A stretch of DNA of 64,000 bases, taken from Peptococcaceae bacterium (GTDB taxonomy: Bacteria > Bacillota > Peptococcia > DRI-13 > PHAD01). The translations under genes and the position numbers were made by a program. Shown here one piece after another: positions 24,884 to 43,208 of this stretch (the first letter of the stretch is position 1; every line of letters starts with the position of its first letter). The stretch covers positions 2,465-66,464 of the forward strand of contig JAXGPE010000007.1 of the NCBI GenBank assembly GCA_040767105.1. The letters run 5' to 3'. Below the pieces are notes generated by a model that saw nothing but the letters and a program-made list of their open reading frames with translations, was not told the DNA's origin and ran no database searches.

Positions 24884-24958
24884 AAGAGAAACCCTCCTTT
24901 ACCGCAATGGTTTTACTCCTTATATTTTAACTTTTTTTCATTTTGGTGAACTAAATGA

Positions 24959-25310
24959 TCATCCTTTTTGCTTGTATAATTCTTTACCCTGAGCGATTAT
25001 TTTCTCTTCGCATATTTTTCTTAATAATTCAAGTTCTTCAGCATAATCGGCGTCAGTAAACTCATCTTTATGTTCGAGCTCCTCATAAATAATGATATCG
25101 AAATTATCTTCGCCCATGCTTTTCCATTCCTTCTGCAATTCTTTGTTGGTATAAATCCGACCTGCAGGCGTTTTGTGCCGTTGATGCCAATCCTTCGTTT
25201 GCTGTAAAAGCATTTATTATTTAGCTTGCAACAAGCTGCGAATATACCACACCTTTGGTTTTTCTGTTCTTATATTGCTCGGTCAACTCTTTTTTACGCT
25301 GTGCATCCAT
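24959..25310 (-). CDS. Small GIY-YIG-like protein (frameshifted)
   Basis: MDAQRKKELTEQYKNRKTKG(G)VY... then NKELQKEWKSMGEDNFDIIIYEEL...DYAEELELL. Confidence 0.6.
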
Positions 25311-25411
25311 ATTATCTTTCTTCCTTTCTCAATATCACTTATTCAATGCTAATGCTTGTTTGTTCTCTTTGTCAATAAATTATACTTATTCGATAAGTCC
25401 ACGCGTAAAAC

Positions 25412-25440
25412 AAAAAGAGGAGTGCAGCTGCGCTCCTCTT
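25412..25440 (-). terminator. Terminator downstream of tRNA-Val
   Basis: AAGAGGAGCGCAGCTGCACTCCTCTTTTT on minus strand. Confidence 0.7.
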
Positions 25441-25467
25441 CCCAAATCCTTGTTTTGTAAATACCTA

Positions 25468-25544
25468 TGGTGGGCGGTAATGGACTCGAACCATCGACCC
25501 CTACGATGTCAACGTAGTACTCTAACCAGCTGAGCTAACCGCCC
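25468..25544 (-). tRNA. tRNA-Val (GAC)
   Basis: 77-nt cloverleaf GGGCGGTTAGCTCAGCTGGTTAGAG...CTACG-TTGACAT-CGTAG...GGTTCGAGTCC...ACCA; CCA encoded. Confidence 0.97.
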
Positions 25545-25572
25545 ATTAAAAGTTCTTGGCGAACTAAATATT

Positions 25573-25601
25573 ATTATAGAGGGGCCCATCTTTCTTGTCA
25601 A
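25573..25601 (-). promoter_or_regulatory. SigA promoter of tRNA-Val
   Basis: TTGACA-17 nt-TATAAT. Confidence 0.85.
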
Positions 25602-25616
25602 ATTTAATAATAAAAA

Positions 25617-25645
25617 TTGAAAATATCCTTTAACCTTGCTATAAT
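25617..25645 (+). promoter_or_regulatory. SigA promoter (extended -10) of the tRNA-His-like RNA
   Basis: TTGAAA-17 nt-TATAAT, with TG one base before the -10 box. Confidence 0.75.
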
Positions 25646-25663
25646 GGGTTCGAGCACATCATG

Positions 25664-25736
25664 AGGGATTGTGGTGTAGAGGTTGCACTCAGGTACGTGG
25701 CACCTGATTACGTGGGTTCGATTCCCACCTATCTCT
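25664..25736 (+). ncRNA. Non-canonical tRNA-His-like RNA (anticodon GTG)
   Basis: Cloverleaf: GGGATTG/CTATCTC acceptor, GTG/CAC D-stem, CAGGT-ACGTGGC-ACCTG anticodon arm, GTGGG-TTCGATT-CCCAC T-arm; A32/C33, A-1:U73, no CCA. Confidence 0.7.
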
Positions 25737-25789
25737 CTTGGCGTTGGCTTAAAACCCTTTTAAACCCTTTATGGGAACATTTTTTGTCC

Positions 25790-26568
25790 AAAAAGGTTTA
25801 TTCTGCCTGTATAACTCTGTGAAGCATGGTAAAAAAGAAATCCTTCCTGGCATACTTCATTTTTTATTTTATTGATATCCAATCCTGAATAATCATCATT
25901 CTCATACAAAATAAAGTTTTAAATTTTCATCGCTTATGCGTTTCAATCTCCTCTTTATAATGCTGACCCAGGCGGCGCTTTTCTTCTTTTTCTAAAGGTG
26001 GATTCTCTGCTTACATATCCCGTCAATGAGCCCCGCTGTATAAAGACAAACTTCTTCCACCCCGTTGTTTTGGATCAATAAGCCTTGAGGGTGGCGCTGG
26101 TTTATTTTTTGAATAATTTCTATTAAGGCTAATATTATTTCGTTTTTTTCTGATCTAGAGAACATTGGTGATTCAATATCAGCCATTGTATCAAGAAATA
26201 TACCGTCATAACCTGCATGATATAGTTCGCTTGCCTTATTCAACAAAATCCTGCTCCAGTTTTTGGATCTAGGATCAGCAAGGCTTGCGGCATATTTTTC
26301 GTTACGTAGGATCAAATCATTTCTTTTAAGGAGATCCGCTTGTCCGAGCAACATTTTTCTCTCTGGTATAATCAGCGACCTCGATAACACTCATGTAGGC
26401 AATACAGACTGTATTATTCTCTTTTAACCATCTGACGCTTTCAGCTGATTGTCCTGGGATTCCAAAATGGCAATGTCAAAATTAGCTGCTTCTTTTTCTT
26501 GTCCGTGTCCATAATAAAGCACCGCCAGTATCTGCTTCTGCAAAGCGTTTCCCAAGTATTTTCAACAT
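25790..26568 (-). CDS. Endo-alpha-1,4-polygalactosaminidase-like hydrolase (GH114 / PelA hydrolase-like), heavily frameshifted
   Basis: YYGHGQEKEAANFDIAILE, IAYMSVIEV, DPRSKNW, GYDGIFLDT, LLIQNNG, IDGIC; 3' end approximate. Confidence 0.75.
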
Positions 26569-26582
26569 GCTCCCGTTTGATA

Positions 26583-28425
26583 TCATAATTTCGGTCCCAT
26601 CCTATACAGAAACTCAGTATATACCATACAGCTGCGGCATGTATTTCCGTGTCTTTCACAAAGAACTCCTTCATTTTCCCAGCAATTTGTTCCCGGATTA
26701 TTAAAAGCCGGGCAATGCTTGCAGACGCTTTTGGGCGAGCAGCGGATCTCCCAGCATTTACCCAACGATCTGCCTCTGATTTCTGGTCTGGCCTGTTTTT
26801 TTGCGAACCAGTTGATCAAAGCATCAACTGCCTCAGTATCCAGCTGAGTTCCGGAAGCACTTTTCAGCAAGTCTATCGCCTCGGCGAAAGGCAATGGCTC
26901 ACGATATCTGCGGCCGCTTATTTTAGCTAAAAATGTCTGCACCACAGCAATGATTTTTGAACCTACAGGTATTTGTTCGCCCTTGATACCCTTGGGATAT
27001 CCGTATCCATCTATCTCATGATAACGGATGTAATCGGCGACCCTTTATTCGGTATTGTAGCTTTAATCAAGCCCCAACCTCCGCGTGCATTTTCATCTTG
27101 TCATATTCTGCTTCTGTGTATTTTCACATTTAAAGAGCAGTTCATTTGAAAACCAAGAACTCCGATATTGCCCCAGCAGCAGCCAATACCACATCTTTGA
27201 TGATCCTTCTTCTAAATTCATTTCGCAGGCGATGATACCGGCATACTTGGCCATAAGTTCAGAATATCCTACAGTATAAGGCTCAAGGTTATCAATCGTT
27301 TCTGCCATTAGCTTCAGTGTTTCAAGATATGATTCTGCAAGTTTTTGTATTTATTTTTGGCTGTCAAAGATCGGCTAAACGCTTCATCATTAAATGCAAT
27401 CCACGATAAAACGATGAGTTCTGCAAGGATATCATTGTACCAAAATGCCGCTATGCCCTTGTTCTTCTGTGTGGGTATATTTACAAGTATAACTCAACTC
27501 TATACCATGCTTGATCAGATGCTCCGGAAGAGTATAAAAATCGCGGTCTTTTTGTTCAGGATGCGGATCTGTCTTCCAAGTCCCAACGGCTCAGTTTGTG
27601 TATTCAGCGGTGTTGCGCATCATCACAACCTGCTCTGCTCTGTTTTTTACAAGTCTTCGTTGTTTTTCTTCTGCGATAATAAATCCTCCACCCGGCAGCT
27701 CCAATCATTTTTGCTGTTAAATTGATCAACAAGCGGCGTTGCCGACAAAATCTGTTAACTGTCACACTCAGGCTGTGAATAACGGCGCTTGGTACCTGTG
27801 ATCATGAACTCTGTTTTGGAGATCATCAAGATCATCGATCATTTTAGCTGAGTTACCAGCACCCGGCAAGCGTATTGTAGCCTTTTCCTGATTTTAGAAT
27901 TTTCTTTACCGGGACTATTTGGACAAGTCCTATATCCTCCAAAAGTATATTTAATAAATTTGACCGTATTTGATTATTGATATAAGCTTGAATATTTTTT
28001 GTTTTCATATCCTCAATTGCTTGGGAATATATTTATCTTTATAAGACAATAGACCACTGTATAGGTGATATATCAGTCATCTTCCTCCTGGTGCCTGATG
28101 TAGTACATATTGATCATTTCTTTTGTCGTAAAGGTAAAAAAAAGTATCAGGGCTCCAACTAAGGTTCGGAAAAATATCCAATACCGAACAAAGCATTTTG
28201 TCTAATCCCTCTTACATTAATACAAGTTCGGAATGGACCATTTTCAATATCTTGTGTTTTTCGATGTGTTTGGACTTTTTATGACTGACAACAACTACGA
28301 TCAAAGCAAAAATAATAATATCAGCTATAATGATCGAAATATTATTAGCTGGCAAGTTTGCGATAAAATCTTCGATGTTTTGATCGACCCAAAAATAGTC
28401 CCCAAAAACTACTAATTTTTTGCAT
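26583..28425 (-). CDS. Membrane-anchored degenerate HD-GYP protein with a C-terminal Cys-rich two-CW domain (heavily frameshifted)
   Basis: ATG 28425 after GAAGGGGG; TM IIIADIIIFALIVVVV; LEPYTVGYSELMAKYA; L.GNIGV in place of LHDIG; DGYGYPKGIKGEQIPVGSKIIAVVQTF; SGTQLD; CWE..C..CPA..NCWE..C..C..C. The link between the N-terminal TM and the HD part is inferred across frameshifts. Confidence 0.7.
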
Positions 28426-28429
28426 CGCT

Positions 28430-28782
28430 TTCCCCCTTCGCTTTTTTCAGATGCCTGTGCACATATTGTATCGCCATTTGTTAGTCAACTCGTTCAGCGT
28501 TCTTGTTTGAGATTTGGATGGATTGCTGCAGGATTACATCAATAACACTGCAATGCTCACGAATAAAAAACAGAAGGGTCGGCGGATAATCCACTCCAAC
28601 CAGCTCAGCAACGATGATCAGAGTGTTCGGCATAAAGGATAGGATCAGAATCAACAAAAGCCCCGCCAAACCATAGCATAGAAGTTCCTCTCGTTGATCT
28701 TTCTTCGGACGAGCAGAGCGCCTATTGCAACTACCAAGATGACACCGATAATCGCGGCCACCAGACGTGTTATAGGACTCAT
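28430..28782 (-). CDS. DUF2304-family small membrane protein (GacJ/Rv3632-like), frameshifted
   Basis: Directly downstream of a GT2; AELVGVDYPPTLLFF and SIQIS motifs followed by a short coiled coil. Confidence 0.7.
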
Positions 28783-29469
28783 TGTTTTGCCTCCTTGGTA
28801 GATTTCGAACGTATAATAATGACCAAAATACTTATAAGCATTTAAAGATATAATACGCTGGTCACAGGCCCAGAATGCGCCACTCCTCCTTCCTGCTCTA
28901 ATATTAGCAAGGAAACTCCTTTACTTTAAAAACCGCGCAGGATCATTCCGATAAAAATATCAGCATCAGGATAATCATAAAGGAAATTACCCATCATTGC
29001 GTAATACTTAAACACCTCTCTTCTCAAGCCTTGCAGCCCGAGGATGGTTATCCTCACTTTTGTTGCCATAAAGATTATCAGCGAAAAAGAATTGTGCTGT
29101 TCTTTTCATAAAACCAGTTCTAAAATCACCTTTGCCCAAAACCTTGAGCCAACTACTATATCAGCATTTTCTCCATCCATTATATCCAGCAGCTGAGATA
29201 TCTCGGTCATGCTGCCCGTCTGCATCGAACTGAATTACCCTCATAGCCGCGGGCACAAGCATACTTAAACCAGTCTGTAATGCTGCCCATGGCAAATTAT
29301 ACGGAAGCGCTATAACCTCCAAACCGGCCTCTTTGGCCTTTTTAACCGTTCGATCAGTGGATCCGTCGCGACTAAAAGTATATCGATCGGATAATTAAAT
29401 TTGCAGTTCCACAATGACTACTCGATACTTTTTCTTCATTCAGGGCTGGAATGATCAAGATTTTTCCAT
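28780..29469 (-). CDS. GT2 glycosyltransferase, polyprenol-phosphate sugar synthase (DPM1/GacI/PpgS-like), heavily frameshifted
   Basis: Manual fragments: IIPALNEE, DGSTDRTVKKAKEAG, AALQTGF.YA, QFDADGQH, ADIVVGSR, YDYPDADI. Confidence 0.75.
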
Positions 29470-31054
29470 CTCACGCCTCCTCTTTTTCTAAGTAAATACA
29501 GCGCCCAAAAATATACCGTCGTTAAGATCAATCCCGCTCCCATACCAAAAGCAAAGTTTGGTCCAAAGTTTTTCGGTTGAGAGTACCACAAACGGTTTAA
29601 AAATAAAATTATAAATAAGGGGAGTTGACCGGAGTATTTCGTATATTTTGCGAGTTGCTTTTTTCATTTTTACTCCCAGTGCTTTTTAAGGATAAAAAAA
29701 GCATAGATTGAAATTAAGTGAGCGCGGCCCCGCCCCGACCAGCCGGGCAAAAACTTTTGTCAAATAAAAATCGGCAGCAATTGTGATTAAAGAGGTGGAT
29801 GTTAGAATCACCAGGGGCTATCGTCTTGCCGTACCATAAAAAACCTTAATCAATGTAGATCATCCCGCCCGACAATGGTCAAAGAATATCCAGCTAGTAT
29901 ATCAGCAGTTATTTGCAGTGAAGGCTGATCAAAGCCCTCTCTGAAGCAATACAGGCCATTGGCACGCGCAGTAAACAAATTGTGAGCGTCAATGGTACGA
30001 GCGGTAGAGCTATCAGCCTGATTGCTCTGTTGTAGTTCACCGGAATAAATCATAGTCACCTATACCCTGGACTTGGCCATATCAGGAAATACGACGGCGA
30101 TAGCGCACAAAAACCCAAATGGAAACTGGGCAATGCGATAAGCATAATTAAGTCAGATATAGTTTCCTTCCCCGATAATCCGGCAAGATATCGTTCGGCA
30201 AAAAAAACTGTTTGCATTGCAAGCAAAATTAAAAAATAAGGAAAAAATGTTCCCAAAATACTTTCAAATCCTGTGAAGAGGATATTTTTGTCTTGTACTC
30301 ATCAAGCGGCCTTCTGATAGTAATATAAGCCGGCGAATCCCCCCCAAACAAGTACCGCCATGAATACGACCCCGCAAGTTATACCCCAGGCTATTATAAA
30401 TACGCCGTTTTGAATAAAGACATCATTCAATATACCGTATGTTATGGAGAACAGAAATATCATATTGAAAACAAGCGGACCCAAAGCCGGCAGATTAAAT
30501 TTTTTGTACACCTGCATTATTGATGCACCAATATTGTATAGGGGATAAAACAAAATAGTCGGCAGAAGGATACACAATAATTTTATCGTTAGTTCCGATG
30601 TTTCTTCAGACATACCAGGGCTAAGCAGTTGAATGATCTCCTCTCTGCCGAGGATCATAAGTATTGTTAATATAAGTGCCGCTCCCCAAAACATCAGGAC
30701 ACTATTTTTCAATGTTCTTCCTAACCTTTCTTTTTGTCCCAGTATCCATAGTTTGGCAAACACCGGGACACAAGCGACACCAACTGCTGCTGCAAAAAGG
30801 TTGTTACCGACAGTATCAGGTATAAATAGAGCTATCAGCAGTGCATCAGATTGTGGTGAAGTGCCGAGATAATATGCAAGCACAATATCCCTAAGCAATG
30901 CCGCGACCGCCAAAAGCATGTTAATAAATACTAAGGTGCTTATACTGCTGCTTAGCATCTTTTTGTTAGATTTTATCAGGCTTATCAAAGTTTTGATCAA
31001 CATGCTGCACTTCCTTAATATACCGCTATAAATATTGATTTTAGTATCGACCAT
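29470..31054 (-). CDS. MurJ/MviN-like (MOP family) lipid-linked sugar flippase; 3' half frameshifted
   Basis: LLRDIVLAYYLGTSPQSDALLIALFIPD, CVPVF, KFNLPALGPLVFN; downstream fragment FFAERYLAGLSG. Confidence 0.8.
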
Positions 31055-31078: not shown

Positions 31079-31939
31079 TCATAGCTTGACTTCAGGCCAT
31101 ATACATTCTTGGATCACCTGGCTCATCGGATAAAACTTATGCGCCTTTATTAACCTCCGGATTTTTGAAGCAGTAGTAACGATATTATAATAGTGAACAA
31201 AACATATATGAGGAGGAAAATCTAATCTGGGCTGCTCAACATCTATTTCCCAAGGATGGACATAAAGCATAGCTGTATTTTTTTTACTGACCTGTCTGAA
31301 ACAGTGATTTACAAACCAATATGGCCAAAATCGCAAGTAAAAGCCTCCTGAAAATGGTATCTTGAATATTCCGAACTTCAAAACTGTAGATGGATATTCT
31401 AAAATATTGATTTTTCTGCCGTCGATCACTGGATAAAAGGGTCTGAGCGGTGCTTTATTAACACCTGATAGAGGTGTTCGAAAAGGCTGTATACTGGAAT
31501 CGTATATAAAGCCCTCCTGCTCAAGAACTTCAAAGACCCAAAGTGTGTCGCGGGATATCGACCAAGATGCGGCACGATAACCAGTGACCGCCTTCCCCGT
31601 AACATCTTGCAGAATATTCTTTGATAAGATCAAATCCTTAGTGAACCATTCCCGGGATTGGGCATCAAGCATTCGATGCTCATAGCCATGCGAGGCTATT
31701 TCATGTCCTCTTGCGGATATTTCACGTATCAACTGCGGATATTTTTGTGCTATATAACCCAAAACAAAAAATGTCCCTTTCGTTTCTGTATGGTCTAATA
31801 TATCCAAGAGCTCAATGGTATTTCGTTCAATGCGATCTTCGTATTCCGGCCATTTTGAACAAGGAAAATCGAAATCGTTGGTTTGATACCAATCTTCCAT
31901 ATCGATCGTCAGGGTATTTTTCATCATTGTACTCCTCAT
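31079..31939 (-). CDS. Polysaccharide deacetylase (CE4, DUF3473-type)
   Basis: TIDMEDWYQ, GTFFVLG, HEIASHGYEH, GYRAASWS, YDSSI, GGFYLRFWPY, YVHPWEID; no signal peptide. Confidence 0.9.
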   Translation of the reverse strand: MRSTMMKNTLTIDMEDWYQTNDFDFPCSKWPEYEDRIERNTIELLDILDHTETKGTFFVLGYIAQKYPQLIREISARGHEIASHGYEHRMLDAQSREWFTKDLILSKNILQDVTGKAVTGYRAASWSISRDTLWVFEVLEQEGFIYDSSIQPFRTPLSGVNKAPLRPFYPVIDGRKINILEYPSTVLKFGIFKIPFSGGFYLRFWPYWFVNHCFRQVSKKNTAMLYVHPWEIDVEQPRLDFPPHICFVHYYNIVTTASKIRRLIKAHKFYPMSQVIQECIWPEVKL

Positions 31940-33102
31940 CTAAATAAAATCTTTTGCCACATATTCTTGTCAAAAAAATATCTTGCTGCTGCCAAGAAGA
32001 AACCTAAAACCGGCAGTGGATCATCCGGGGAATACATATCGTCATAAACCAGTTGCTTTTTACCGCTCAAAAATGGCGGGTCCATATTTCTCCGCTGCTT
32101 ATTAAAAAGGAAATGCAGAATTTCTCCTGGAAAAGTCCATTTGCATTTGATACCGGTTCGATAAGACGAAACATATTCGATGGGTTCGTTTATCATTGTT
32201 TGATAAAGCAGCCAGGGGAAATCTATGCCGGCAAATATGGCCATCTGGACTGAAGCCCAAAAGCGCGGATTTATTTCCATAAAATACATCTGTCCATCTG
32301 CTTTATTTTCCATGAATTCGATTTCGACAATTCCCTGCCAGGGCAGCAGTTGCATTAATTTGAGGCTCATATCGAGCAGTTCCGGATTTTCAACACTTTC
32401 CTGCACAGTACTTGGGCCCCAGTTGATAGGAAAGTTTCGAATCTCTTTTTGGACAAAAGAAGCTTTAAGCTCACCGTTTCTATCATACAGAAGACAAACA
32501 TCATATCTGTTTTTTGGCTCAATATATTGTTGAATCATGGGCCATGGATATTGCGAATGGATCTTTATGTATTCAGCTATCAGCTCTTCTTTACAGCTGA
32601 CTTTGCGAATGCCTCTTGATCCTGAGCTTATACGCGGTTTTATTATCAGAGGATATTTCATGTCTTCCGAAAATTCATATACTTGCTGCAAATCAGTTAT
32701 ATTCATCGTCAACGGGCAGCACAATCCTGCTTCCCGGGCTTTGACCATTGCTTTTCCTTTGTCAGCGGCACAAAAATAACTTTCCGAAGCAGGAAGAGGC
32801 ATAAGGCATAATTTTTCAAGCTCATCCCGATGTTTTACTGCAAGAAAAAAAGCATCGTCATCCATCGGGATAAAAATCTGGCAGTTATTATCCAGCAAAG
32901 TTTTTTTAATCCAGCTCAGATATTCATCTTCCTTTGAATGCTGTTCAGGGGAAACTATATGTTTGTAACAGTATTTGGAGCAGGCAGTCGGAGTAAAGTG
33001 AGTCCGGTCTGCGGCAATGATCTGCAGCCCCCGTTTGCCAAGCGATCTTGTTACTGCAAGCGTTTTGCGCTGCTGGGCATCAGAAAGGAGTACCTTTGGC
33101 AT
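31936..33102 (-). CDS. ATP-grasp carboxylate-amine ligase
   Basis: LAVTRSLGKRG, YPLIIKPRISSGSRG, MIQQYI, FMEINPRFWAS, AGIDFP. Confidence 0.88.
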   Translation of the reverse strand: MPKVLLSDAQQRKTLAVTRSLGKRGLQIIAADRTHFTPTACSKYCYKHIVSPEQHSKEDEYLSWIKKTLLDNNCQIFIPMDDDAFFLAVKHRDELEKLCLMPLPASESYFCAADKGKAMVKAREAGLCCPLTMNITDLQQVYEFSEDMKYPLIIKPRISSGSRGIRKVSCKEELIAEYIKIHSQYPWPMIQQYIEPKNRYDVCLLYDRNGELKASFVQKEIRNFPINWGPSTVQESVENPELLDMSLKLMQLLPWQGIVEIEFMENKADGQMYFMEINPRFWASVQMAIFAGIDFPWLLYQTMINEPIEYVSSYRTGIKCKWTFPGEILHFLFNKQRRNMDPPFLSGKKQLVYDDMYSPDDPLPVLGFFLAAARYFFDKNMWQKILFR

Positions 33103-33114
33103 GATCCTTCTCCC

Positions 33115-35166
33115 TTAATCATTTAGATTAATAATATCTACAGGATTCTTTCCATCTTGTTCGATTTTGTAAACCTTTAAAAAATCACTTTCATAAAATA
33201 CGCTGAAGCGGTCGTCTTTCTGCATGCCTAACTCTGCCCAGGCATTGACCTTTTTTTCAATATTATATCTATTTTTTATATCGTAGTAATAGGTTTCATT
33301 TGCATTATTGCCAGGCGCTGGCAAAGCTTCTTCCAGAGCATTTTCATTGACAAAACCGTTTGAATTCAACGGTACCTTTTCAACAAATACAAAAATATAA
33401 TCAGTCGGTATCTTCAGCTCCTGGTTATCCTCGATATTTTTTACAAACTCCCATATTTCGTAGTGCCAACCATAACCAAGTGCCTGCTGGTACTGTTCGA
33501 CAGGTGAGATTATCGTCCAATTCGCTCTTGGAAAATTTTCTTTTATTTCAAGATATGCCAGAACAGCCTCATCATATTCGTATCGCTCCCCTTTCGGTAT
33601 TGCATTAAAGGGACCAGCGGACAATACAAAATACAAAGCTGTAACACAAAATATCGTTTTATAAATATACTTGTGTTTATCTTTAATGCTTAATATATCG
33701 ACAAAATTTATCGGGCTGGCCAGCACAATAACAATAAACGGCGAAAAGAAAATACCGATCCTTACCGGGTCCATGACTTGGGGCAATCCATAATAATTGG
33801 CTCTATAGAGAAGATACAATACTATCGTTGTCAGAATAAATGCTCCAGATGATTGAAAGGACTCATTTTGCAGGTTTTTTTTGTATCTACTCAGTAAATT
33901 AGTTAAGATCAATATTGATATACATGCAAAAAACAGCAATAGTATTCTATTGTTTTCCATAAATATGCTTTTTTCGATTGACCCCGTGCTGTCCTGAATA
34001 ATTTTGAATTTACTCTGAACATATCCTAGGCTTTCATGGAATTTCTTGCCAAGAGCGAGTGCCGTAAACCATGGTAGAACGGCTATAGATACCGCACCTA
34101 TCATTGATAATGCGAGCGAAAAAATGATCCTTCCTTTGCATATTTTTTTTATGTTCGTCAGAATCGATATACTATAAGACAAAGTCAGAATAATTGTCGC
34201 ATACGGGTGGATAAAAGTTACTATCGCAAGGCACTCCGCTGCAAGGAACAGAAATTCTTTCTGACGTTTTTTGATATAGATATTCAGGAAGTGAATACCG
34301 GGCAAGATAAAAATGATCGCATATTCCATCGGCAGAGGAGATATTTGTCTCCATATATAACTGGGTAATTCTGCACTTACGGACAACCCATAGATCAACA
34401 TCGCTGCCCATGCCAAATGAGTTCCATTAAAATTCTTTCTCGCAAAATAGTAAATACTTATAACGATCATAATTCCGGCCAATGGTCCTAAAAAACGCAT
34501 AACATAATAAGGATCGATGAAGAAGACCCGTTCTATAGCAGCTACAACTGCTTGATAACCATAAGGATATATGCCGTCATGATATATATCATTCTGGATA
34601 AGATACTTAGTCCAGGCAAGATGCAGATAGGAATCCGAAGTTCCCAAATACATATGGGTGAATGAATGGTGGAAACGAATAAATGCCGCCCCGATAAATA
34701 CAGCTAAAAGCAATACTCCTTCAAAGGGGCAGCATATTATCTTCCTTGCTAGGACTCTTATACATACGAATATGCCTTGACGGCAGGAGCAAAAAATGCT
34801 TTGCATTAATTTCCGCAGCCAGTTTTTTGTTTCGGATATATCCAAAAGTCTCACGATAAGGATCATGCCAAAAGTTTCAGTGGATGCGGACGATTTTCTT
34901 CTTTTGGCAAGCCAGATAGCAAATATATATAGTGCCAAATAGCTCAACATAAGAGAAAATGTTTCATATATCTTCAAAAACACTAATATATGTGTCAAAA
35001 GTATGATCACAAAATGAGCATGAGTAATGCTGATAAAGAATTTGTCCCCTATTCCTTTGCTGTCTTCACGAAAAGGAATTATCCCAGAAGGTAAAATAAC
35101 GTAAAAAAGCATGTATACAAAGATAACTTTGAAAAACATCCCCATGGTATTGACAGGATCGATCAT
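33115..35166 (-). CDS. Polytopic membrane protein, probable GT-C fold glycosyltransferase (paralog 2)
   Basis: 683 aa with many TM segments; loop SDSYLHLAWTKYL...DGIYPYGYQ; soluble C-terminal domain; paralogous to the upstream gene. Confidence 0.7.
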   Translation of the reverse strand: MIDPVNTMGMFFKVIFVYMLFYVILPSGIIPFREDSKGIGDKFFISITHAHFVIILLTHILVFLKIYETFSLMLSYLALYIFAIWLAKRRKSSASTETFGMILIVRLLDISETKNWLRKLMQSIFCSCRQGIFVCIRVLARKIICCPFEGVLLLAVFIGAAFIRFHHSFTHMYLGTSDSYLHLAWTKYLIQNDIYHDGIYPYGYQAVVAAIERVFFIDPYYVMRFLGPLAGIMIVISIYYFARKNFNGTHLAWAAMLIYGLSVSAELPSYIWRQISPLPMEYAIIFILPGIHFLNIYIKKRQKEFLFLAAECLAIVTFIHPYATIILTLSYSISILTNIKKICKGRIIFSLALSMIGAVSIAVLPWFTALALGKKFHESLGYVQSKFKIIQDSTGSIEKSIFMENNRILLLFFACISILILTNLLSRYKKNLQNESFQSSGAFILTTIVLYLLYRANYYGLPQVMDPVRIGIFFSPFIVIVLASPINFVDILSIKDKHKYIYKTIFCVTALYFVLSAGPFNAIPKGERYEYDEAVLAYLEIKENFPRANWTIISPVEQYQQALGYGWHYEIWEFVKNIEDNQELKIPTDYIFVFVEKVPLNSNGFVNENALEEALPAPGNNANETYYYDIKNRYNIEKKVNAWAELGMQKDDRFSVFYESDFLKVYKIEQDGKNPVDIINLND

Positions 35167-37134
35167 TTATTGTTCCTCCCCCAAACCCGGCGTTTTTCTT
35201 CTTCTGCCTTCTTTTGCTGGTGTATATGCCATATTCTAAGTACATCATCTTCATAATAAACGCTTATGTTGTCATGATATTTTTGGTATTCGTAAAGCCA
35301 ATCCTTTAATTTTAAGTATTCCGATTCCCGACGTTCATATATTTCCTGTAAAGACTCAAATTCCGCCCTGAAAAGTTCTTTTTCTTCATAAATGAAAATA
35401 TCTTCGTTATCAAGAAATTCTTCAGGATCACCATCTTTACGAAAAAGCTTTGGGGTGCTGGGGTCATACCAGGTCAAAAAGTCCTGCAACATCAGATGCC
35501 AGCCTTTTCCGAGCACAATAGCATATCCTTCCTCTTGTGAGACGATAAGCCAGGTCGTAGGGGTAAATTCCTTTGATATTCTTAAATACTGAGCAACTCC
35601 GCTTTCGTGCTCCATTTTATATGGTTTTGGGATTATCGGTTTATCATTGACCAATATAAAAACAAAGATGGCCATCACAAAGAATATTCCCACACATCTT
35701 TTTTTCAGAGGCGGCAGAAGGTAAGCCAAAGAATTCATCCCAAATCCTATACTGATCGGAAGAGCCAGTGTCCATAAATCGTCTGCCCTGAAGCAACGAA
35801 GGTGCTTTGCGTCCATACCCTCCCCAGCGATAAAGCACAAACGTAAAGCTCGCAAAAAATAATATAAGTAAATCGTACGCACGACTTTTTTCACGACGAA
35901 AGGGAAGCGTGATCACTATGATGAGTAGTCCGGCTAAAGCAGCGTAATCCAGGTTTTTTAATGCCGGTATATATGTTATTGATGATTGGGCAACCAAATA
36001 TTCCGCTGAAGACCCGTGGAACTGAGAACCTAACAGTAGTCCAATCGCAGCAGGAAGAATCGAAATAAGACACGCTATGATCCCGGCAAGTGCAATGGTC
36101 AAAACCCTTCTCCACCGCTTACGAAACCCTGTCAACAATCCAGCCAGGCCGACTAACGCCATCCCCAGTCCTATGTAACCAAAACCAAGCGTATGAGAAA
36201 GTCCTGCTGCACAAGTTGCCGCTAAAGCCGGAATGAGGTCTTCGATTTTTCCCTCAAAGACAAAGCGAGCAAAGAAAAAGAGGGCCGGGAAAACAAAGAT
36301 AAAGGCAAACTCCTGAGAGTTTGTAGACGCTTGCCGCATCCAGTCATCAAAAAAGCTTCCACCCATTATCCCGTATATGAATGCCGCAAGCAAAGCCGGA
36401 GAAGTTTTTTCCGTGATTCTATATACAAAATAACCCATAGCTCCTGTTGTAAGCAAACCGTTAAAAGGTCCGGTAAATTTTAGTACATGTAAAGGATCGA
36501 TCGCCGAAAACTTATAGATCGAAGCCAGAATGATGTGAAAGCCCTGAGGATATATACCATCATGAAAAATATAGCGTTGGTTGATATATTTCATCCAGGC
36601 CAATGTGACGTATGCATCTGACATTGCCGGCGCAGAGGTCGTCCAAGCATCATAAAACCTCAAATATGCCGCTCCGCCTATAACCGAGATCAAAATCAGC
36701 ATTGTGAGGAGATTGGGTGGTCTGCGCAATTTTTTCAAGGCATTTAATGCTTTTTTTCGTTTGTCCGAAAGATTTTCGTTTAATACCTTGGAGACCTTTT
36801 CTTTATTTTCCAAAAGATCGTACATGCGAATGTTAAAGCTTGTAAGGAAGTTCTCATTCTTTTTTTTGCGATAAAAATGATACACCGCATAAATCAAAAT
36901 TACGATGCTTATACCCAAAACCTCGAATAGCTTTATCGCAGCCAGAATATATCCAAAAATGATCAAAAACATTGTCATAATGACATAGTTGCTTACTGCA
37001 TTATCTATGGAGCTTTCCTGGCGGCGCGAAAAAATAAACCGCGGGATTATCGAAAATATCACGACAAAGGCAAGCAGGAACCTACCAAATAATATTGTTT
37101 TTTCCCAGAAGAGAGCGTCCATGCAATTCACCAT
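35163..37134 (-). CDS. Polytopic membrane protein, probable GT-C fold glycosyltransferase (paralog 1), frameshift near 35800
   Basis: SDAYVTLAWMKYI...DGIYPQGFH; MRQASTNSQEF; C-terminal WLIVSQEEGYAIVLGKGWH matches WTIISPVEQYQQALGYGWH of paralog 2. Confidence 0.7.
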
Positions 37135-38724
37135 TTAAGCGTTTGAATACAGGTAATAATCCAGATGTTCGAGCAATCTGAATGCGGCCTTGCTCGTCAT
37201 TACAGTAAATATGATCGCTCCTAATAGAAACCCGAACACTGCATAGGTATGATCGAACCAGCGACTTAATAAAAATCCGAGGACTATATCTGATAATATT
37301 GCCCACAACATAGCTCTGGTGGCGTTTTCCGGGTGAGAAAAGCAAAATAATACTAACGCATTCATCAGTCCTATACATAAAATAGTAAATCCGATTAGAC
37401 CGATAATAAAAACAAAATTTGTTGTATTACTGCTGATCAGCGGGTCATGAACCGGGAAAAATGAAAGCAGGTGTACATGTTTGACAGAGTAATAGACAGC
37501 TGCCGAGCTGATCAATGAAAATACCGCAACGATTATCATTCTAAGAAAATAGCTTCTTAAGCTCATCCTGTTCATTAGTCCGATTTCATGCATACTGAAA
37601 TTTTTTTGGTTTTTTTCTATATTGCCCATCAATTCCGAGATAACGACTTCAATAAGACCCATTGGTATGATCAAGGCGAATAAAGCGTAATCAAGACCTA
37701 ATTCGTAAGCCCCTCTGAACCAGATGATATAAGGCATAAACTGCGTATCCGTTGACCAGGCGATTATCCTATCTGTATAAAGAAAGCTGAAGTACAAAAA
37801 CCCATAAACAAAATAAGGTAATACTGTATAAATAGTGATCGCGGTTCGGGGCATTGCTGAAACATTAAGAGCTTTACCTGACTTTTTTTCCATTTTTTTA
37901 AAATATCTCAGGGCGACCAAAGCTCCTAAAATCGAAACAATACCCAACGAAATCAACTGTGCTATGATCACGTCAATGCCAAACAATCTGAAAAGCACAA
38001 ACACAAAAGCTATGCCGATAACGAGCAAGAGAGGGATTACAATTTCCTTGCCCAATACATAAAATATGGTGAAAGACAGCCAAATGGCACTGAGAAAAAA
38101 GAAAAATATAATGATAACAAAAAGCATCCTGTAAGGAAAGATGCTGAAAAATAAATTAAATATTATAAAAAAAAGCGCAGCCGTTATACATACAACATAT
38201 CCAACACGAACCAGGTAGAAAACGACGCGTCGAGCCAAATTATAATTGCCCAGATTAATATAAAGGAACCCCCGGCGGGCAATAGCCTGGGCGAAGCCTC
38301 CAACAGCCATAAAGCTCATGATCGTTCCTATAGCAATACTGGTGGCAACTTCAAGAGTCAAGCCGATGTATGATGACATCGAAAAATTCATCGTAAGCAT
38401 AGCCAAAACGGAGATTGTCATGGGTAAAGCAAATATTGTTCCTCGAAAAAAACTTCTTATGACCATGTAGAGATAAGCTGGTATGGATTTTCGAGGAACA
38501 TCGGCAAAAGCCCGGGCGCTGATATTCTGTCGGGAAATCCTCCATATTTCTCCGGCAAGCTCAAAGATATCCTCTACTCCAAATTCTTTTGCTGCTCTTG
38601 CATCATTCCAGCCATTTGCCTCGAGGATAGCGGCAATCTCATATTGATCCTCCGGAGATAAATGCTTCTGCAGGACCTCATTGACAACATCATGATATTT
38701 GCTGTCTCGCACAGATAGCTGCAT
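37135..38724 (-). CDS. PelG-like multi-pass membrane protein (putative polysaccharide exporter)
   Basis: 529 aa with about 12 TM segments after a short soluble N-terminal domain (EIAAILEANGWND...FGVEDIFELA); YFSFLYTDRIIAW resembles the PelG loop motif; co-operonic with a PelF-like GT4. Confidence 0.65.
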   Translation of the reverse strand: MQLSVRDSKYHDVVNEVLQKHLSPEDQYEIAAILEANGWNDARAAKEFGVEDIFELAGEIWRISRQNISARAFADVPRKSIPAYLYMVIRSFFRGTIFALPMTISVLAMLTMNFSMSSYIGLTLEVATSIAIGTIMSFMAVGGFAQAIARRGFLYINLGNYNLARRVVFYLVRVGYVVCITAALFFIIFNLFFSIFPYRMLFVIIIFFFFLSAIWLSFTIFYVLGKEIVIPLLLVIGIAFVFVLFRLFGIDVIIAQLISLGIVSILGALVALRYFKKMEKKSGKALNVSAMPRTAITIYTVLPYFVYGFLYFSFLYTDRIIAWSTDTQFMPYIIWFRGAYELGLDYALFALIIPMGLIEVVISELMGNIEKNQKNFSMHEIGLMNRMSLRSYFLRMIIVAVFSLISSAAVYYSVKHVHLLSFFPVHDPLISSNTTNFVFIIGLIGFTILCIGLMNALVLFCFSHPENATRAMLWAILSDIVLGFLLSRWFDHTYAVFGFLLGAIIFTVMTSKAAFRLLEHLDYYLYSNA

Positions 38725-38727
38725 ACT

Positions 38728-39897
38728 TCAGTCTTCCATTCCGGGTAAAACCATATTCACGATCAATTCAGGCAATTTACCCTCGGTTTCAGCCTTAGAA
38801 ATAATTTCTTTAGTTATCGTTGCACCCTTTGTTATTATTGCCTCCCCGTTATTACCGATTAGATCTTTCCCGGCCAATTTACCGGCAATATATTTGAAGC
38901 GTGTATTTATTATTTCACTGGCAACCGCTGGACTGCCGGAGTTTCCGCCATCACTGCTTGCATTTTCTTCTGTACTGTTTTCTATTTTTTCATCGCTATA
39001 ATCTTTTAACTGGGTCTTTATCATTTCACTTGTTTGCGTTTTATAATGATCCAACATATCTTCTGCCTTCTGTATACTTTGTGTTCTGTTTTCTTGTGTG
39101 CTGTTGTTTTCAGTATCAGAAGTCTTCCAAAATTCTTCAATTTCTTCATGATTGGCGCTGATATTCTCGGATCCACTTTCTTCTTCGGCAGCTTCTGCCG
39201 TAAAGTCTTCCTTTGTTATTTCTTCCTTATTAAGTTTCTGGGCAAGTTTATTCATCATTCTTTTAAGACGCCCAGCCTCCTCGTCTTCTCTTTTTTCATT
39301 TTCACTCTCGAAAAAAGGTGTCCCATCAGCAGCGATCTCTTTTTCCTCAGCCCATTGATCATTTGAATCGAAATCGCTCAAGTCTTTTTCTTGGTTACGC
39401 AAATTTCTCTCATTTATTATTTCATTCAGTTTAATTATTTTGTTAGATAGTTGCTCAGTTTCAGGGACGCTTTTTTCAGTATCTTTCATGATGCTCGCTA
39501 ACTCCTCAAGCAAGCTTTTGATTTGTTTTTTTGTTGTGACAATTTCTTCTTCAATATCAGCGATTTTTTGTTTATCCGCAGCTTGTTCTTTTTCAGCTTC
39601 TTTTAAAACCTTTTCCGCATCCAACGCTGCTTTTTGCATTAATATTTCCGTCATTTCCTTGACCCTGTTTACCGTGAGGGTTATAAAATCTTCACCCTCA
39701 AAACGCGTTGCCCATTTTTCCTGGAGTCTATCAAGTTTCTCACTCAAAGTGTATTTCTCCGACAATGTCTCTTCAAGCTGCCTTTGCAACTGTGACAATT
39801 CAAAAGAATGGTTTTCCTTAAGTTTCTGAAAATAGCTTTCAACTTCACGTTTTCTATATCCTAATAACTTTATTCTAAAATTTTGAGGTCCCGTCAT
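38728..39897 (-). CDS. DivIVA-like N-terminal domain protein with coiled coil, acidic linker and small C-terminal domain
   Basis: FRIKLLGYRKREVESYF; long heptad region; C-terminal KYIAGKLAGKDLIGNNGEAIITKGATITKEIISKAETEGKLPELIVNM. Confidence 0.7.
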   Translation of the reverse strand: MTGPQNFRIKLLGYRKREVESYFQKLKENHSFELSQLQRQLEETLSEKYTLSEKLDRLQEKWATRFEGEDFITLTVNRVKEMTEILMQKAALDAEKVLKEAEKEQAADKQKIADIEEEIVTTKKQIKSLLEELASIMKDTEKSVPETEQLSNKIIKLNEIINERNLRNQEKDLSDFDSNDQWAEEKEIAADGTPFFESENEKREDEEAGRLKRMMNKLAQKLNKEEITKEDFTAEAAEEESGSENISANHEEIEEFWKTSDTENNSTQENRTQSIQKAEDMLDHYKTQTSEMIKTQLKDYSDEKIENSTEENASSDGGNSGSPAVASEIINTRFKYIAGKLAGKDLIGNNGEAIITKGATITKEIISKAETEGKLPELIVNMVLPGMED

Positions 39898-40315
39898 CTC
39901 CGTACGCCTCCAAAACCTTCTTGTATGAATTTGTGATTGTTTCCATCTCTTTGGTCAAAGACTCCAATGCCTTTTTGATTTCCAGGCGTTTTGTCTCCTT
40001 TTCAAAAATATCCGCTTTGGATTTTCTGATAATTCGCTGGCCTTCTTTTATCGCCGCAAACACCTCTTTGCTTGCACGATCATGACTATCGAACAACTCT
40101 TTCATTATTTTCTGGTTAAGTCGTTCGCGCTCCTCAAATTCATCATTGATCTGCCGGATCTTTTCTTGCAGCAACTCTATTTCTCGAGTGACATTGTATA
40201 ATTGATCGCTTAATTCCTTGATCCTATTCTCGTAGTGCTCTATATCAGAAATGATCCTGTTTTCGACCTCGGCCCGGTCATATCCAAAAAGAGCACGCGG
40301 AAATATCTTTTCCAT
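39875..40315 (-). CDS. DivIVA-like domain coiled-coil protein
   Basis: FPRALFGYDRAEVE followed by about 120 aa of coiled coil. Confidence 0.7.
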   Translation of the reverse strand: MEKIFPRALFGYDRAEVENRIISDIEHYENRIKELSDQLYNVTREIELLQEKIRQINDEFEERERLNQKIMKELFDSHDRASKEVFAAIKEGQRIIRKSKADIFEKETKRLEIKKALESLTKEMETITNSYKKVLEAYGDDGTSKF

Positions 40316-40324
40316 TTTTCCTCC

Positions 40325-42060
40325 TCAAGCGATTTGTTGATGATTTAGGACATCAAAAAGAGCTTCGGCCTTGTCCAGCTCATTGAAGGCCTTATCAAAC
40401 TGACCCATGCTATTATAGGCTTTTGCGATCTCAGTGATTATAGCCGGTACTGCCGGGGTATCCGGCGCTACTTCTACTGCCTCCCGCAGCTGGATCAAGG
40501 CTTCAGGCCACAATCCCAGAGACATAAAAGCATATCCTCTTTCGATACGCAGACGCTGAACACGGATCTTATCCGTGATCTTCGTTAAATCATCTTTACC
40601 CTTGGCAAGAGCTTTATAACTACTAAATACGCATCAAGTACTTTTTCAATGGTGAAATAATTCAGAGCCCGTTGGCGAGCTTCCTCGCCAAGGTTGATTC
40701 TCATCTGCGGATTTTCTAAAAGCCTTATAACTTCTTTTGCAAGCTCTTCCGGCTTGTTAGGCTGGATAAGTATCCCTGTTTCACCGAGCGCTTCGCTTAT
40801 GCCGCCAACATCAGTGGCAACGACAGGCTTCCCTGTCATCATAGCTTCTACAACGGAATAAGGGAACGCCTCAGTTATACTTGAAAGGCAACTACATCTC
40901 CACTGCGATAGGCCGCAGGTATATCCTCAGTGTGTCCAGCGAAAATAAAATTTTCTTGCAGTTCTTTTTCCTGGACCAGTTTCTGACACTCTGCGAAATA
41001 CTCAGGTACTGCTACCGAACCATACACAATAAAACGCACATCTTTTATTCTGCTGCGTACAATATCCGCAGCACGGATCAATGTGACTATATCTTTACCG
41101 GATCTATACGAGCTACAGTAATAACAGTAGGGAATTTGTTCGAAATACTTCTTGGAGGTGGAGTAATACCTCCTTATTAACTCCGTTATAAATAACTTTT
41201 ATCGCTTCTTGCTTTACTCCAAGATTTTTCTCCCAGCGTGGATTATAATTGCATACAGGTGAAACTTGGTCTGCGAAGTGGGAATTTAGCTGCGTGATCG
41301 AGTTTATCATTCGCACTAAAAAAGTGTTAAGAAAAGAAGGATAGCCCCTTTTAGACAAGGAAAGATATTGCTCGCGCAGGTAAACTCCATGTTCGGTCAA
41401 AAGAAAAGGTGTTTTATTTTGTATTTTTGCCAGCACACAGGGGATCCCGCAAAATGCCGCCGCGGCAGAGTGCGAGACATTTACCCTTGGTATAGGCGTA
41501 TTAAGAATTATCAGAAAGCGATATATCCAGCCCATGCTCTGGATCATCGCCCAGACATTGGGTTCACTTATCTGATTGCTTTTTTCAGAAGAGAAGGCCA
41601 TGAGCATTTTTTTATATATTTCCCATGTGTCTTCAGCCTTGAAGCTTTTTTTATAATCGTATTCCTGAAAATACTCATGCATATTCGTAAGAGTATTTCC
41701 AAATCTTACCGCATTTTTTTCAGTACTTACTAATTCTTCGATCAGGTCTAAAAATAAGGGCAAAAACTCGCGCCGTACTACCTGATCATTTGTTTGCCGC
41801 TTAGCGATATAAACCTGAGAAAAAGGTGTAGTCAAGTGTTCGCTTGGTTCTTCAGTTCCCCAAAGCGGTACGGTTATAAGGCTTGAAGTTAAAGGAAGAT
41901 TAAATTTCCTCGTGACAAATGGATTCATGATAATGCTATATACAACATACTCAATGTCTGTAAGATTATGTACAAGCTGATCACACCAAGTGCTGACTCC
42001 GCCTTGATGATATGGATATGTCCCTTCAGTTGTGAGCATCACCCTGATTTTATCTTCCAT
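40325..42060 (-). CDS. pelF: PelF-like GT4 glycosyltransferase (DUF3492 plus GT-B) with a fused C-terminal TPR region; several frameshifts
   Basis: TEGTYPYHQGGVSTW, LTEHGVYLREQY, VIYNGV, EAFPYSVVEAMMTGKPVVATDVGG; a shift near 40620 leads into SYKALAKGK...RGYAFMSLGLWPEAL...AKAYNSMGQFDKA. Confidence 0.85.
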
Positions 42061-42338
42061 TTGCAGGTCACCTTTGCTTGTTTGGTCGGCATTAAAAACA
42101 CAGTGCATTTTTACCAGACAATTAAGAATAAAATGTATAGCATTTTTCTATTAATACATTATAATTAGTGATACGTGACTAAAATGAATTGTTAAATATC
42201 ATTTAAAATTTATTTTAACATTTATTTACTTTTTATTCAAATATATCTTTGTTTTTCAACTCATTATTAGATAATCTTATATTATTCTCTAAATTTTTTA
42301 ATAAAATTAATGTTATTTAATTTTTAAGGAGGATTTTT

Positions 42339-43208
42339 ATGTCTGATTATGTTATATTAACAGATTCTTCCTGCGATCTTCCCCGAAGCTTTATAGATCA
42401 ATATCAGGTGCCTTTCGTCAGTCTGGTATGTAATTTCCGTGGTAAAGAATGGGTCGATGATTTTGGAAAAACTTTGGATTATAAAGAGTTTTATTCTGCC
42501 TTAAGACAAGGAGAAATGTCGAGTACTTCTCAGGTAAATGTCCAAACCTATCTGGATAAATTTAATGAATTCACAAAGCAAAACAAACCGATAATATATA
42601 TTGGTTTTTCTTCCGCCTTAAGCGGAAGTGTTTCAAGCGCCTATACCGCACAAAAAATCTTTTCAGAACAGAATCCTCATGCGGATATAACAATTATCGA
42701 CAGTAAAAGTGCCTCTCTCGGTCAAGGACTTTTAGTATACTACGCTTACGCTATGCAAAAAAATGGTACAAGTAAAGAAGATTTGATTGGATGGCTTGAA
42801 AATACTAAACTAAAAATCAATCACTGGTTCACGGTTGATTCCCTTGATCATCTGAAACGCGGAGGGCGTATTTCAGGAACTGCCGCCTTTATCGGTAATA
42901 TACTAAACATCAAACCTATCTTAAATGTAAATGACAGCGGCGGACTAGTTGCAGCATTCAAAGCTAAGGGTCGTAAAAAAGCTCTGCAAAAAATAGCAGA
43001 CATGCTTGAGGAAAACATCATTGATCCTGAAGAACAGGTCATTGCAATAAGTCACGGCGATTGTCTGGACGAAGTCGAATATCTTGTCAGTCTCATTAAG
43101 GCAAAATATACCTTCAAGGATATAATAATCAACCATGTTGGTCCTGTTATCGGCTCCCATTCAGGCCCAGGCACTATTGCCCTCTTCTTTATAGGTGAGA
43201 AAAGATAG
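42339..43208 (+). CDS. DegV family fatty-acid-binding protein
   Basis: TDSSCDL, STSQV, SSALSGS, DSKSASLGQG, HLKRGGRIS, IGSHSGPG. Confidence 0.95.
   Translation: MSDYVILTDSSCDLPRSFIDQYQVPFVSLVCNFRGKEWVDDFGKTLDYKEFYSALRQGEMSSTSQVNVQTYLDKFNEFTKQNKPIIYIGFSSALSGSVSSAYTAQKIFSEQNPHADITIIDSKSASLGQGLLVYYAYAMQKNGTSKEDLIGWLENTKLKINHWFTVDSLDHLKRGGRISGTAAFIGNILNIKPILNVNDSGGLVAAFKAKGRKKALQKIADMLEENIIDPEEQVIAISHGDCLDEVEYLVSLIKAKYTFKDIIINHVGPVIGSHSGPGTIALFFIGEKR

Follow-up and report, generated by a model that had tools for sequence, protein, structure and literature searches.

In canonical Pel systems, cytoplasmic PelF works in one membrane complex with PelD, PelE and PelG, within which PelE is the predicted interaction hub (available part of PMC13254593). 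A DivIVA-type scaffold can have a polysaccharide synthase as its partner as well: in Streptomyces the housekeeping DivIVA goes together with CslA, a polar glucan synthase of glycosyltransferase family 2 (GT2; available part of PMC13432765). Here we describe divS and divL, two overlapping genes for DivIVA-like coiled-coil proteins that lie between a pelF gene and the gene of a PelG-like membrane protein in a 64,000-nucleotide stretch of a Peptococcaceae bacterium (contig JAXGPE010000007.1, positions 2,465 to 66,464), which we call the window. Unlike the Streptomyces scaffold, these are dedicated paralogs, and they reside in an operon built around a PelF-type enzyme of glycosyltransferase family 4 (GT4). 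We propose that DivS and DivL form a membrane-binding scaffold and are fixed subunits of a variant Pel-type machine, in which they stand in for PelD and PelE; we regard this proposal as evenly poised between right and wrong.

Profile comparison places both proteins with DivIVA. A profile of DivS (four orthologs) was aligned by hhalign to a profile of true DivIVA (15 DivIVA domains from genomes of the window's order) at 94.2% with an E-value of 1.1e-7, columns 3–113 lying on columns 9–119 (100 columns), and a profile of DivL residues 1–140 (six orthologs) reached 92.8% (E 4e-7). DivS and DivL matched each other at 87.5% (E 3.5e-6), whereas six controls in which one side was sequence-reversed stayed at 0.4–1.0% (E 0.06–0.13). 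The alignments to DivIVA begin at the signature motif and keep its register. When compared with the sequences of the PDB, the DivS profile found the N-terminal domain of Bacillus subtilis DivIVA first (2wuj_A, E 0.0045), while an alignment of 144 family members found eight GpsB N-terminal domains (E 0.0018–0.068) and 2wuj at E 0.09. As judged from these profiles, DivS and DivL are strongly diverged DivIVA-domain paralogs that lie outside the curated family boundaries, and the likeness to DivIVA that a first-pass annotation of this DNA had read in their N-termini is borne out. A word-based homolog search with DivS returned only DivS itself; the orthologs used here came from syntenic loci. Ordinary DivIVA is encoded separately, as a normal DivIVA gene was found elsewhere in 34 of 34 genomes of the order and the window genome has two such matches outside the locus (141.5 and 113.7 bits). 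The second of these (G000:C14:44677-44997) carries an in-frame TGA and may be an assembly error or a broken copy.

The predicted architecture agrees with that of DivIVA (PF05103; 2wuj/2wuk), in which a short N-terminal helix, a loop and a long helix with the signature G-Y...E-V...F/Y-L lead into a coiled coil. An AlphaFold2 (AF2) model of DivL residues 1–70 (65-row alignment; predicted local distance difference test (pLDDT) score of 86) comprises a helix (residues 7–10), a loop (11–15) that surrounds the invariant Gly13 and a second helix (16–67). Gly13 is present in 65 of 65 family members and Val19 in 63 of 65, and a basic residue (Lys or Arg) precedes the second residue of the loop tip by two positions in 46 of 65. 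Structure searches with this helical monomer, which could have revealed the crossed-loop parallel dimer of the DivIVA N-domain, were unspecific: Foldseek returned four rows, the top two being GpsB at E 6–7, and a wide VIA search returned 468 chains with Z of at least 5, all of them unspecific plain helices (best Z 5.8). DivS also resembles GpsB (PRK14127; 4ug1, 4ug3, 6gp7, 8e2b, 8e2c, 9pv2), a small DivIVA-type adaptor of similar size whose N-terminal domain binds partners, but it scores 19 bits against a cut-off of 91, lacks the GpsB C-terminal domain and is found in another genomic setting. What further sets the pair apart from DivIVA is its location inside a polysaccharide operon and the addition to DivL of an acidic linker and a BBM2-like end module. 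A chain-length regulator of the polysaccharide co-polymerase (PCP)/Wzz type was also considered and rejected, as no hydrophobic segment was seen in DivS or DivL on reading their sequences.

The pair is linked to one particular type of PelF. In the sample of the window's class, the PelF domain DUF3492 was detected in 6 of 88 genomes and fell into two types: a long, low-scoring type (117–137 bits, 579–604 aa) in the window genome (G000) and in G015, G017, G019 and G033, and a canonical type (272 bits, 467–480 aa, without a tail of tetratricopeptide repeats (TPR)) in G041 and G017. The genomes with the long type are exactly those with strong DivL matches; in G017 both the long-type pelF and the DivL gene lie at contig ends, where adjacency cannot be judged. 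The phylum sample comprised 401 genomes, of which 23 carry DUF3492 and 31 carry the C-terminal module of DivL (hereafter C-dom) at E ≤ 1e-6. A C-dom gene was located 2.0–3.2 kb downstream of the long type (130–153 bits), on the same contig and strand, in 9 of 9 genomes including that of the window, whereas none of the 13 genomes with the canonical type (255–293 bits) had one downstream and three had C-dom elsewhere; a partial DUF3492 match (G417) had no C-dom. The variant PelF scores about half as high as the canonical one.

G015, G019 and G033, which represent three families of the window's order, share the arrangement pelF-divS-divL-pelG-memA-memB-ATP-grasp-deacetylase-MurJ. Paenibacillus alginolyticus DSM 5050 shows the same succession of pelF, a 130-aa DivS-like open reading frame (ORF) that BLAST had missed, a DivL of 446 aa and the PelG-like gene, so that the pair as such is present in homologous clusters. 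A contig of a metagenome-assembled genome (MAG) of Eubacteriales starts part-way through DivL, and the genes downstream of it are those of the other clusters. The search for related loci yielded six genome loci and three metagenome loci, of which only one of the latter (L083) is long. Every complete related locus that was examined repeats this gene order, so the pattern is not a matter of chance. In at least three classes of Bacillota, the pair occupies its position between pelF and the PelG-like gene.

Relatives of the pair were also found outside this cluster. In Clostridium magnum (L056, 2725-15432), a 130-aa DivS-like gene and a 300-aa DivL-like gene stand together without PelF, with genes for a GGDEF response regulator, a HEAT-repeat protein, a GT2 synthase and a DUF4317 protein on one side and for a GGDEF protein, a TPR protein and a MATE/Polysacc_synt protein on the other. 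In the window's order, family f8 consists of single proteins of 420–485 aa that have two tandem DivIVA-like motifs followed by C-dom. The DivS and DivL profiles matched only the second motif of a 470-aa f8 protein (36% and 31% in hhalign), so the reading of f8 as a fusion of the pair relies on motifs read in the sequence. In P0018 (232 aa), a DivS-like N-terminal half is joined directly to C-dom. Finally, the canonical Pel cluster of G041 (L080, G041:C24, 8365-17357) contains CotH, VTC, DUF4956, two unassigned genes, PelF (271.5 bits on DUF3492) and PelG (458 bits on Pfam PelG), and directly behind it follows a 246-aa protein that exceeds the Pfam DivIVA cut-off (65 bits) and has a weak copy of C-dom at its end. 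The Clostridium magnum pair, the f8 and P0018 forms and the G041 case speak for joint action of DivS and DivL and for a repeated association of such scaffolds with polysaccharide synthases.

Behind its DivIVA-like part, DivL has an acidic linker (residues 151–325) with 45 Asp and Glu against 22 Lys and Arg. It carries an ADG motif at residues 190–192 and an FW motif at residues 256–257, and Phe256 and Trp257 are invariant in the ortholog alignment. Across the family, [FY]W is found in the linkers of 103 of 118 long members, compared with a mean of 7.9 in shuffled sequences, and [TS]A[DE]G in 41 of 118. These conserved motifs may possibly serve as peptide ligands.

C-dom, the 64-residue end of DivL, gave no Pfam match even at E ≤ 1 when a 74-aa piece was tested. 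A six-copy profile searched against 1.84 billion representatives (50% identity clusters) returned 776 clusters at E ≤ 1e-3, 427 of which were at E ≤ 1e-10, and in these C-dom is nearly always the extreme C-terminus of a protein of 300–500 aa. Among the best 150 of the 776 clusters, 118 are proteins of at least 250 aa without PRC barrels, and 74 of these 118 have a strict DivIVA-type N-terminal pattern; a Pfam scan of 144 C-dom proteins at E ≤ 0.01 recovered DivIVA in 17 and PRC in 11. Nine singly checked C-dom proteins begin with two PRC barrels (E 1e-14 to 1e-23), and eight of the nine have 3–9 matched C-dom stretches. The PRC-barrel proteins of the window's own class carry one copy as a tail, which bears out the likeness that the first-pass annotation had noted between the end of DivL and the tail of firmicute PRC-barrel proteins. 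C-dom itself was rejected as a PRC barrel, given the absence of a Pfam match, its model of a helix, a hairpin and two helices, and the N-terminal position of PRC barrels in the other proteins. P0008, P0011, P0015, P0028, P0087 and P0147 (637–973 aa) have two N-terminal PRC barrels followed by 4–9 tandem C-dom copies. At L035, L036, L038, L040 and L046 (families f10 and f12), the double-PRC/C-dom gene has a membrane-protein gene on one side, and at L035, L038 and L040 a conserved gene for a 74–76-aa protein lies on the other.

The AF2 model of C-dom (75-row alignment, core pLDDT above 90) folds as helix, hairpin, helix, helix. All top rows in Foldseek were RNA polymerase beta chains, including 3lti (E. 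coli beta2-beta-i4) and 7egs (lobe), which superposed over about 40 residues with a root mean square deviation of 1.0–1.4 Å and 32–35% identity; the best E-value was 8.7e-3 and none was at or below 1e-3. VIA gave Z 6.2 for plastid RNA polymerase beta 233–292, 5.6 for 7egs 233–347 and 5.3 for MoeA, all below its caution line of Z 8, and the sequence profile touched rpoB fragments (3e7h, E 0.018). Insert i4 of E. coli beta (residues 225–343) consists of two BBM2 (beta-beta' module 2) motifs (available part of PMC2939025). Because Foldseek, VIA and the sequence profiles converge, each of them modestly, we call the end module of DivL BBM2-like, as in the RNA polymerase beta insert i4. Although C-dom superposes on BBM2 of beta-i4 (3lti, 7egs, 3e7h), it differs in its setting, since it ends scaffold proteins alone or follows PRC barrels as 3–9 tandem copies and does not lie inside RpoB.

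The first-pass annotation had described the neighbours of the pair as pelF-like and pelG-like. The former holds for a gene that is cut into four ORFs in the window, and the latter by predicted structure only. On Pfam PelG (PF16933), the 529-aa protein in the PelG position scored 13 bits against a cut-off of 29, compared with 407–458 bits for canonical PelG, and genome-level searches of G000, G015, G019 and G033 with Pfam PelG gave no match. An alignment of the PelG-like proteins reached 0.9% in hhalign against two canonical PelG sequences, a value that does not exclude distant kinship because both profiles are thin. In the ESM Atlas, the protein matched a cluster that is 100% PelG with a template modelling (TM) score of 0.71 over 433 residues (79–529) and MATE/MurJ clusters with 0.63, and by Atlas features it scored 0.94 to a cluster that is 71% PelG; this fold match is from a single source with predicted models on both sides. 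On these predicted structures, the protein shares the fold of PelG and the multidrug/oligosaccharidyl-lipid/polysaccharide (MOP)-type exporters. Its first ~80 residues form an extra, putatively cytoplasmic domain that is conserved in seven orthologs.

For the heteromeric scaffold that the first-pass annotation had put forward, complex prediction gave weak support. The predicted complex of DivL residues 1–140 with DivS scored 0.54, 0.55 and 0.54 against 0.00 for three controls, with a partner pLDDT of at least 73 and runs that agreed in at least 61% of contacts. Of 157 solved complexes, 116 attained the mark applied to such predictions, as did 2 of 215 mismatched pairs; scores of 0.60 or lower comprised only 18 of the 157 solved complexes together with both mismatches that passed.

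The data show that DivS and DivL are homologous to DivIVA and paralogous to each other, that their genes hold a fixed position, and what the end module is like and how widely it is spread; oligomerisation, membrane binding, docking partners and spatial targeting we infer along the following lines. The machine would consist of a TPR-tailed PelF-family GT4, a PelG-like MOP-fold protein, two large membrane proteins resembling GT-C glycosyltransferases, an ATP-grasp enzyme, a deacetylase and a MurJ-like flippase. DivS and DivL would be translated together and, by means of a basic-hydrophobic N-terminal loop (K/R-h-h-G-Y/L) and their coiled coils, would assemble into a hetero-oligomer apposed to the membrane. 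The acidic linker of DivL with its FW motif would then offer peptide ligands, and the BBM2-like end would dock a partner, the obvious candidates being PelF, through its TPR tail, and the PelG-like protein, through its N-terminal domain. In this way the pair would do the job that PelD and PelE have in canonical Pel, possibly at curved membrane sites, and it may also confer polar, septal or forespore placement. An adaptor role is suggested because the operon offers no gene besides these two that could tether cytoplasmic PelF to the membrane, and three features specific for the variant travel together: the scaffold pair itself, the TPR tail on PelF and the N-terminal domain added to the PelG-like protein. 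The role proposed here is that of PelD and PelE, which hold cytoplasmic PelF at the membrane beside PelG (available parts of PMC13254593 and PMC7112168), but there is no sequence relation, and PelD and PelE of pelDEADAFG are membrane proteins whereas DivS and DivL, on reading, have no long hydrophobic stretch.

Several observations weigh against this proposal. DivS and DivL score 20.1 and 17.1 bits on Pfam DivIVA (PF05103), both under the cut-off of 28, and TIGR03544 gave no match to the window proteins and only 17.2–20.7 bits for orthologs against a cut-off of 22, so that the pair stays below every curated DivIVA cut-off. The altered aromatic/Arg tip pointed out in the first-pass annotation is real: the residues before the invariant Gly are LF in DivS and LL in DivL and not the canonical Phe-Arg (F17/R18 of B. 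subtilis), and the position adjoining the Gly holds Arg in only 7 of the 65 family members, most of which have a hydrophobic residue there. The complex scores fall in a band in which, unless there is a strong prior, most predictions are wrong, and the solved DivIVA and GpsB dimers may be remembered by the prediction model. The locus of a Herbinix MAG has DivL and no DivS, the f8 genes have unrelated neighbours, and in the phylum sample 22 of the 31 C-dom genomes have C-dom away from any DUF3492 gene. As to PelD and PelE, G017 holds a canonical cluster of DUF2194 (PelA-like), PelF and PelG (L081, G017:C153, 7437-12207) together with fragments of the variant cluster on other contigs; because both systems coexist in this genome, the replacement of PelD and PelE is an analogy and not a demonstrated substitution. 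Pfam PelD_GGDEF found no match in five genomes, even in G041 with its canonical cluster, and none in the control genomes, so that this search is uninformative on the absence of PelD.

Because C-dom is so often found away from DUF3492, the DivL family is wider than the Pel-like cluster. A more far-reaching statement, which we advance tentatively and would sooner doubt than assert, is that the DivL type, with its DivIVA-like head, its acidic linker and FW motif and its portable end module, constitutes a large unnamed scaffold family of the Bacillota which, together with DivS, is a dedicated cytoplasmic subunit of PelF-type GT4 and of GT2 synthases of exopolysaccharide, replaces PelD and PelE and couples synthesis to membrane geometry or to enzymes of cyclic di-GMP (c-di-GMP). 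Should this hold, the same end module on PRC-barrel proteins would mark a common docking target.

GpsB acts as an adaptor for wall enzymes, and DivS and DivL could likewise be a regulatory bridge from the synthase to signalling or cell-wall enzymes, for example those of c-di-GMP turnover, that sets when and not where polymer is made. The BBM2-like module would then be the end that binds the switch, and the pair would fill the regulatory role of PelD. The preference of the family profile for GpsB over DivIVA N-terminal domains would fit such a bridge, as would the position of the Clostridium magnum pair between two GGDEF genes and near a GT2 synthase, and family scans recognised no c-di-GMP receptor in the variant cluster. 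We nevertheless consider it unlikely, given that the same scans found no nucleotide-binding or PilZ- or GGDEF-like feature in DivS and DivL, that the window's cluster includes no GGDEF or EAL gene and that no ligand is known for the BBM2 fold.

DivIVA recognises negative curvature, and the named carriers of the cluster belong to Peptococcaceae, Clostridium and Paenibacillus, which are endospore-forming lineages. The pair might accordingly guide a glycan of the spore or septum towards the engulfing membrane or the asymmetric septum, in line with the suggestion of the first-pass annotation that polymer synthesis is localised to the pole, septum or engulfing membrane. This we judge improbable, as nothing sporulation-specific was seen at the locus, no sporulation promoter or regulator was found there and the cluster also exists in the Herbinix MAG. 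That the two are generic coiled coils with a compositional likeness to DivIVA, or passenger genes without a polysaccharide role, is very improbable: all single-sequence scores are sub-threshold and lie among SMC, Rad50 and HlyD coiled-coil noise, and the N-terminal model finds unspecific helices, but the DivIVA alignments start at the signature in register, reversed controls fail, Gly13 and Val19 are near-invariant and the position between pelF and the PelG-like gene is conserved across classes.

The proposed scaffold genes and their surroundings in the window are listed in Table 1. Both ORFs lie where the first-pass annotation had placed them, with the N-terminal motifs quoted there, and the ORF list confirms their overlap; the C-terminal string and the acidic linker attributed to the larger protein are likewise present in DivL. 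Direct reading of the sequence showed Shine-Dalgarno-like motifs at both starts, GGAGG 9 nt upstream of the divL ATG and GAGGAGG upstream of the divS ATG. The overlap is 8 bp in the orthologous pairs of L017, L018 and L019, versus 23 bp in the window. A scan for promoters and terminators gave a site count no higher than in shuffled sequence. Further downstream in the operon, memA has weak DUF6541 and PTPS_related matches, an ortholog of the deacetylase exceeds the TIGR03006 cut-off (284.6 bits versus 276.2) and the flippase ortholog of L018 reaches 193.5 bits on TIGR01695, which is under the cut-off. The region from 24900 to 29500, downstream of the cluster, has few long ORFs and may hold more broken genes; one 132-aa piece in it weakly resembles glycosyl hydrolase family 66.

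Table 1 Features of the divS-divL locus, in window coordinates.
Feature	Position	Strand	Description	Source
divS (DivS)	39875..40315	-	146-aa DivIVA-domain coiled-coil protein, start MEKIFPRALFGYDRAEVENRI	ORF list
divL (DivL)	38728..39897	-	389 aa, start MTGPQNFRIKLLGYRKREVESYFQKLK	ORF list
Overlap of divS 3' end and divL start	39875..39897	-	23 bp; putative translational coupling	
DivL residues 1-150	39448..39897	-	DivIVA-like N-terminal motif and coiled coil	
DivL residues 151-325	38923..39447	-	acidic linker, poorly conserved, with short conserved motifs	
DivL residues 326-389 (C-dom)	38731..38922	-	compact C-terminal module, BBM2-like	
pelF	40325..42108	-	PelF-family GT4 glycosyltransferase with C-terminal TPR tail; four ORFs here	
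Intergenic region 5' of pelF	42109..42338	-	A+T-rich; presumed operon promoter region	
DegV gene	42339-43208	+	divergent neighbour	Pfam
PelG-position gene	37135..38724	-	polytopic membrane protein, 529 aa; extra N-terminal domain of ~80 aa	
memA	35163..37134	-	large membrane protein (655-696 aa in relatives); two overlapping ORFs here	
memB	33115..35166	-	large membrane protein, 683 aa, paralogous to memA	ORF list, relatives
ATP-grasp gene	31936..33102	-	ATP-grasp enzyme	domain scan
Deacetylase gene	31079..31939	-	polysaccharide deacetylase; Polysacc_deac_1 and DUF3473	
Flippase gene	29536..31054	-	MurJ/MATE-like flippase; three frames in the window	

In the window, pelF, memA and the MurJ-like gene are each split between frames, and contigs from other public runs were compared for pelF. 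The four pelF ORFs (41113-42108, 40875-41081, 40585-40842 and 40325-40525) together contain DUF3492 (137 bits, cut-off 23.3), Glycos_transf_1 and TPR by Pfam, and the first fragment alone scores 61.7 bits on NCBIfam PelF (NF038011). An intact ortholog (L017, 579 aa, TPR tail at residues 505–579) exceeds the cut-off of that family (149.8 bits versus 100), and in a tblastn comparison with an intact ortholog the frame of the window gene changes near 41165, 41094, 40887 and 40620. Contigs of other runs that cover these sites have one extra base behind 41164, 41093, 40886 and 40623, at all four sites in X2, three in X8, three in X16 and two in X15. The independent X2 contig, which spans 38768-42110, differs from the window by 11 substitutions and four 1-base indels, with no indel within divS or divL. 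Because four other runs carry the extra bases, the breaks are most likely errors of the present assembly, or else specific to the strain, and the gene is whole in the population.

Near-identical sequence to window 38700-42110 was recorded in 14 public runs (0.61–0.86 of sampled words), which are labelled as sludge, digester, sediment, wastewater, landfill or biogas metagenomes or, in X1 and X5, by a coded organism name; the share of words was 0.41 and 0.32 in two metatranscriptome runs from anaerobic digesters. Metatranscriptome contigs from two runs of one study cover parts of pelF, divS and divL. Since DNA can occur in such libraries, this is only a hint of expression; the contigs show neither level, ends nor strand, and stretches they leave uncovered prove nothing.

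In a literature search, no paper was found that places DivIVA-like genes in clusters of the Pel type; neither 'coiled' nor 'additional genes' occurs in the available text of PMC7112168, whose supplementary operon figures were outside the scope of the search and could show such genes. New in the present analysis are the identification of the end module and its distribution, the division of PelF into two types with 9/9 linkage, the occurrence of the pair next to a GT2 synthase, the existence of fused forms and the observation that other runs lack the pelF breaks.

Canonical Pel needs the membrane proteins PelD and PelE to hold and activate the soluble polymerase PelF. A widespread Gram-positive variant of the operon has neither of them; it encodes a pair of DivIVA-type proteins instead, its PelF is extended by a TPR tail, and its exporter-like subunit has an additional, putatively cytoplasmic domain. 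The BBM2-like end module defines an unannotated family that links DivIVA-type and PRC-barrel proteins and could illuminate the BBM2 inserts of RNA polymerase. Should the pair prove to be the proposed adaptor, DivS and DivL would be the first DivIVA paralogs built into an exopolysaccharide machine and would offer a way to study where on the cell such polymers are deposited. Paenibacillus alginolyticus DSM 5050, a cultivable carrier of the full cluster, makes the question testable.

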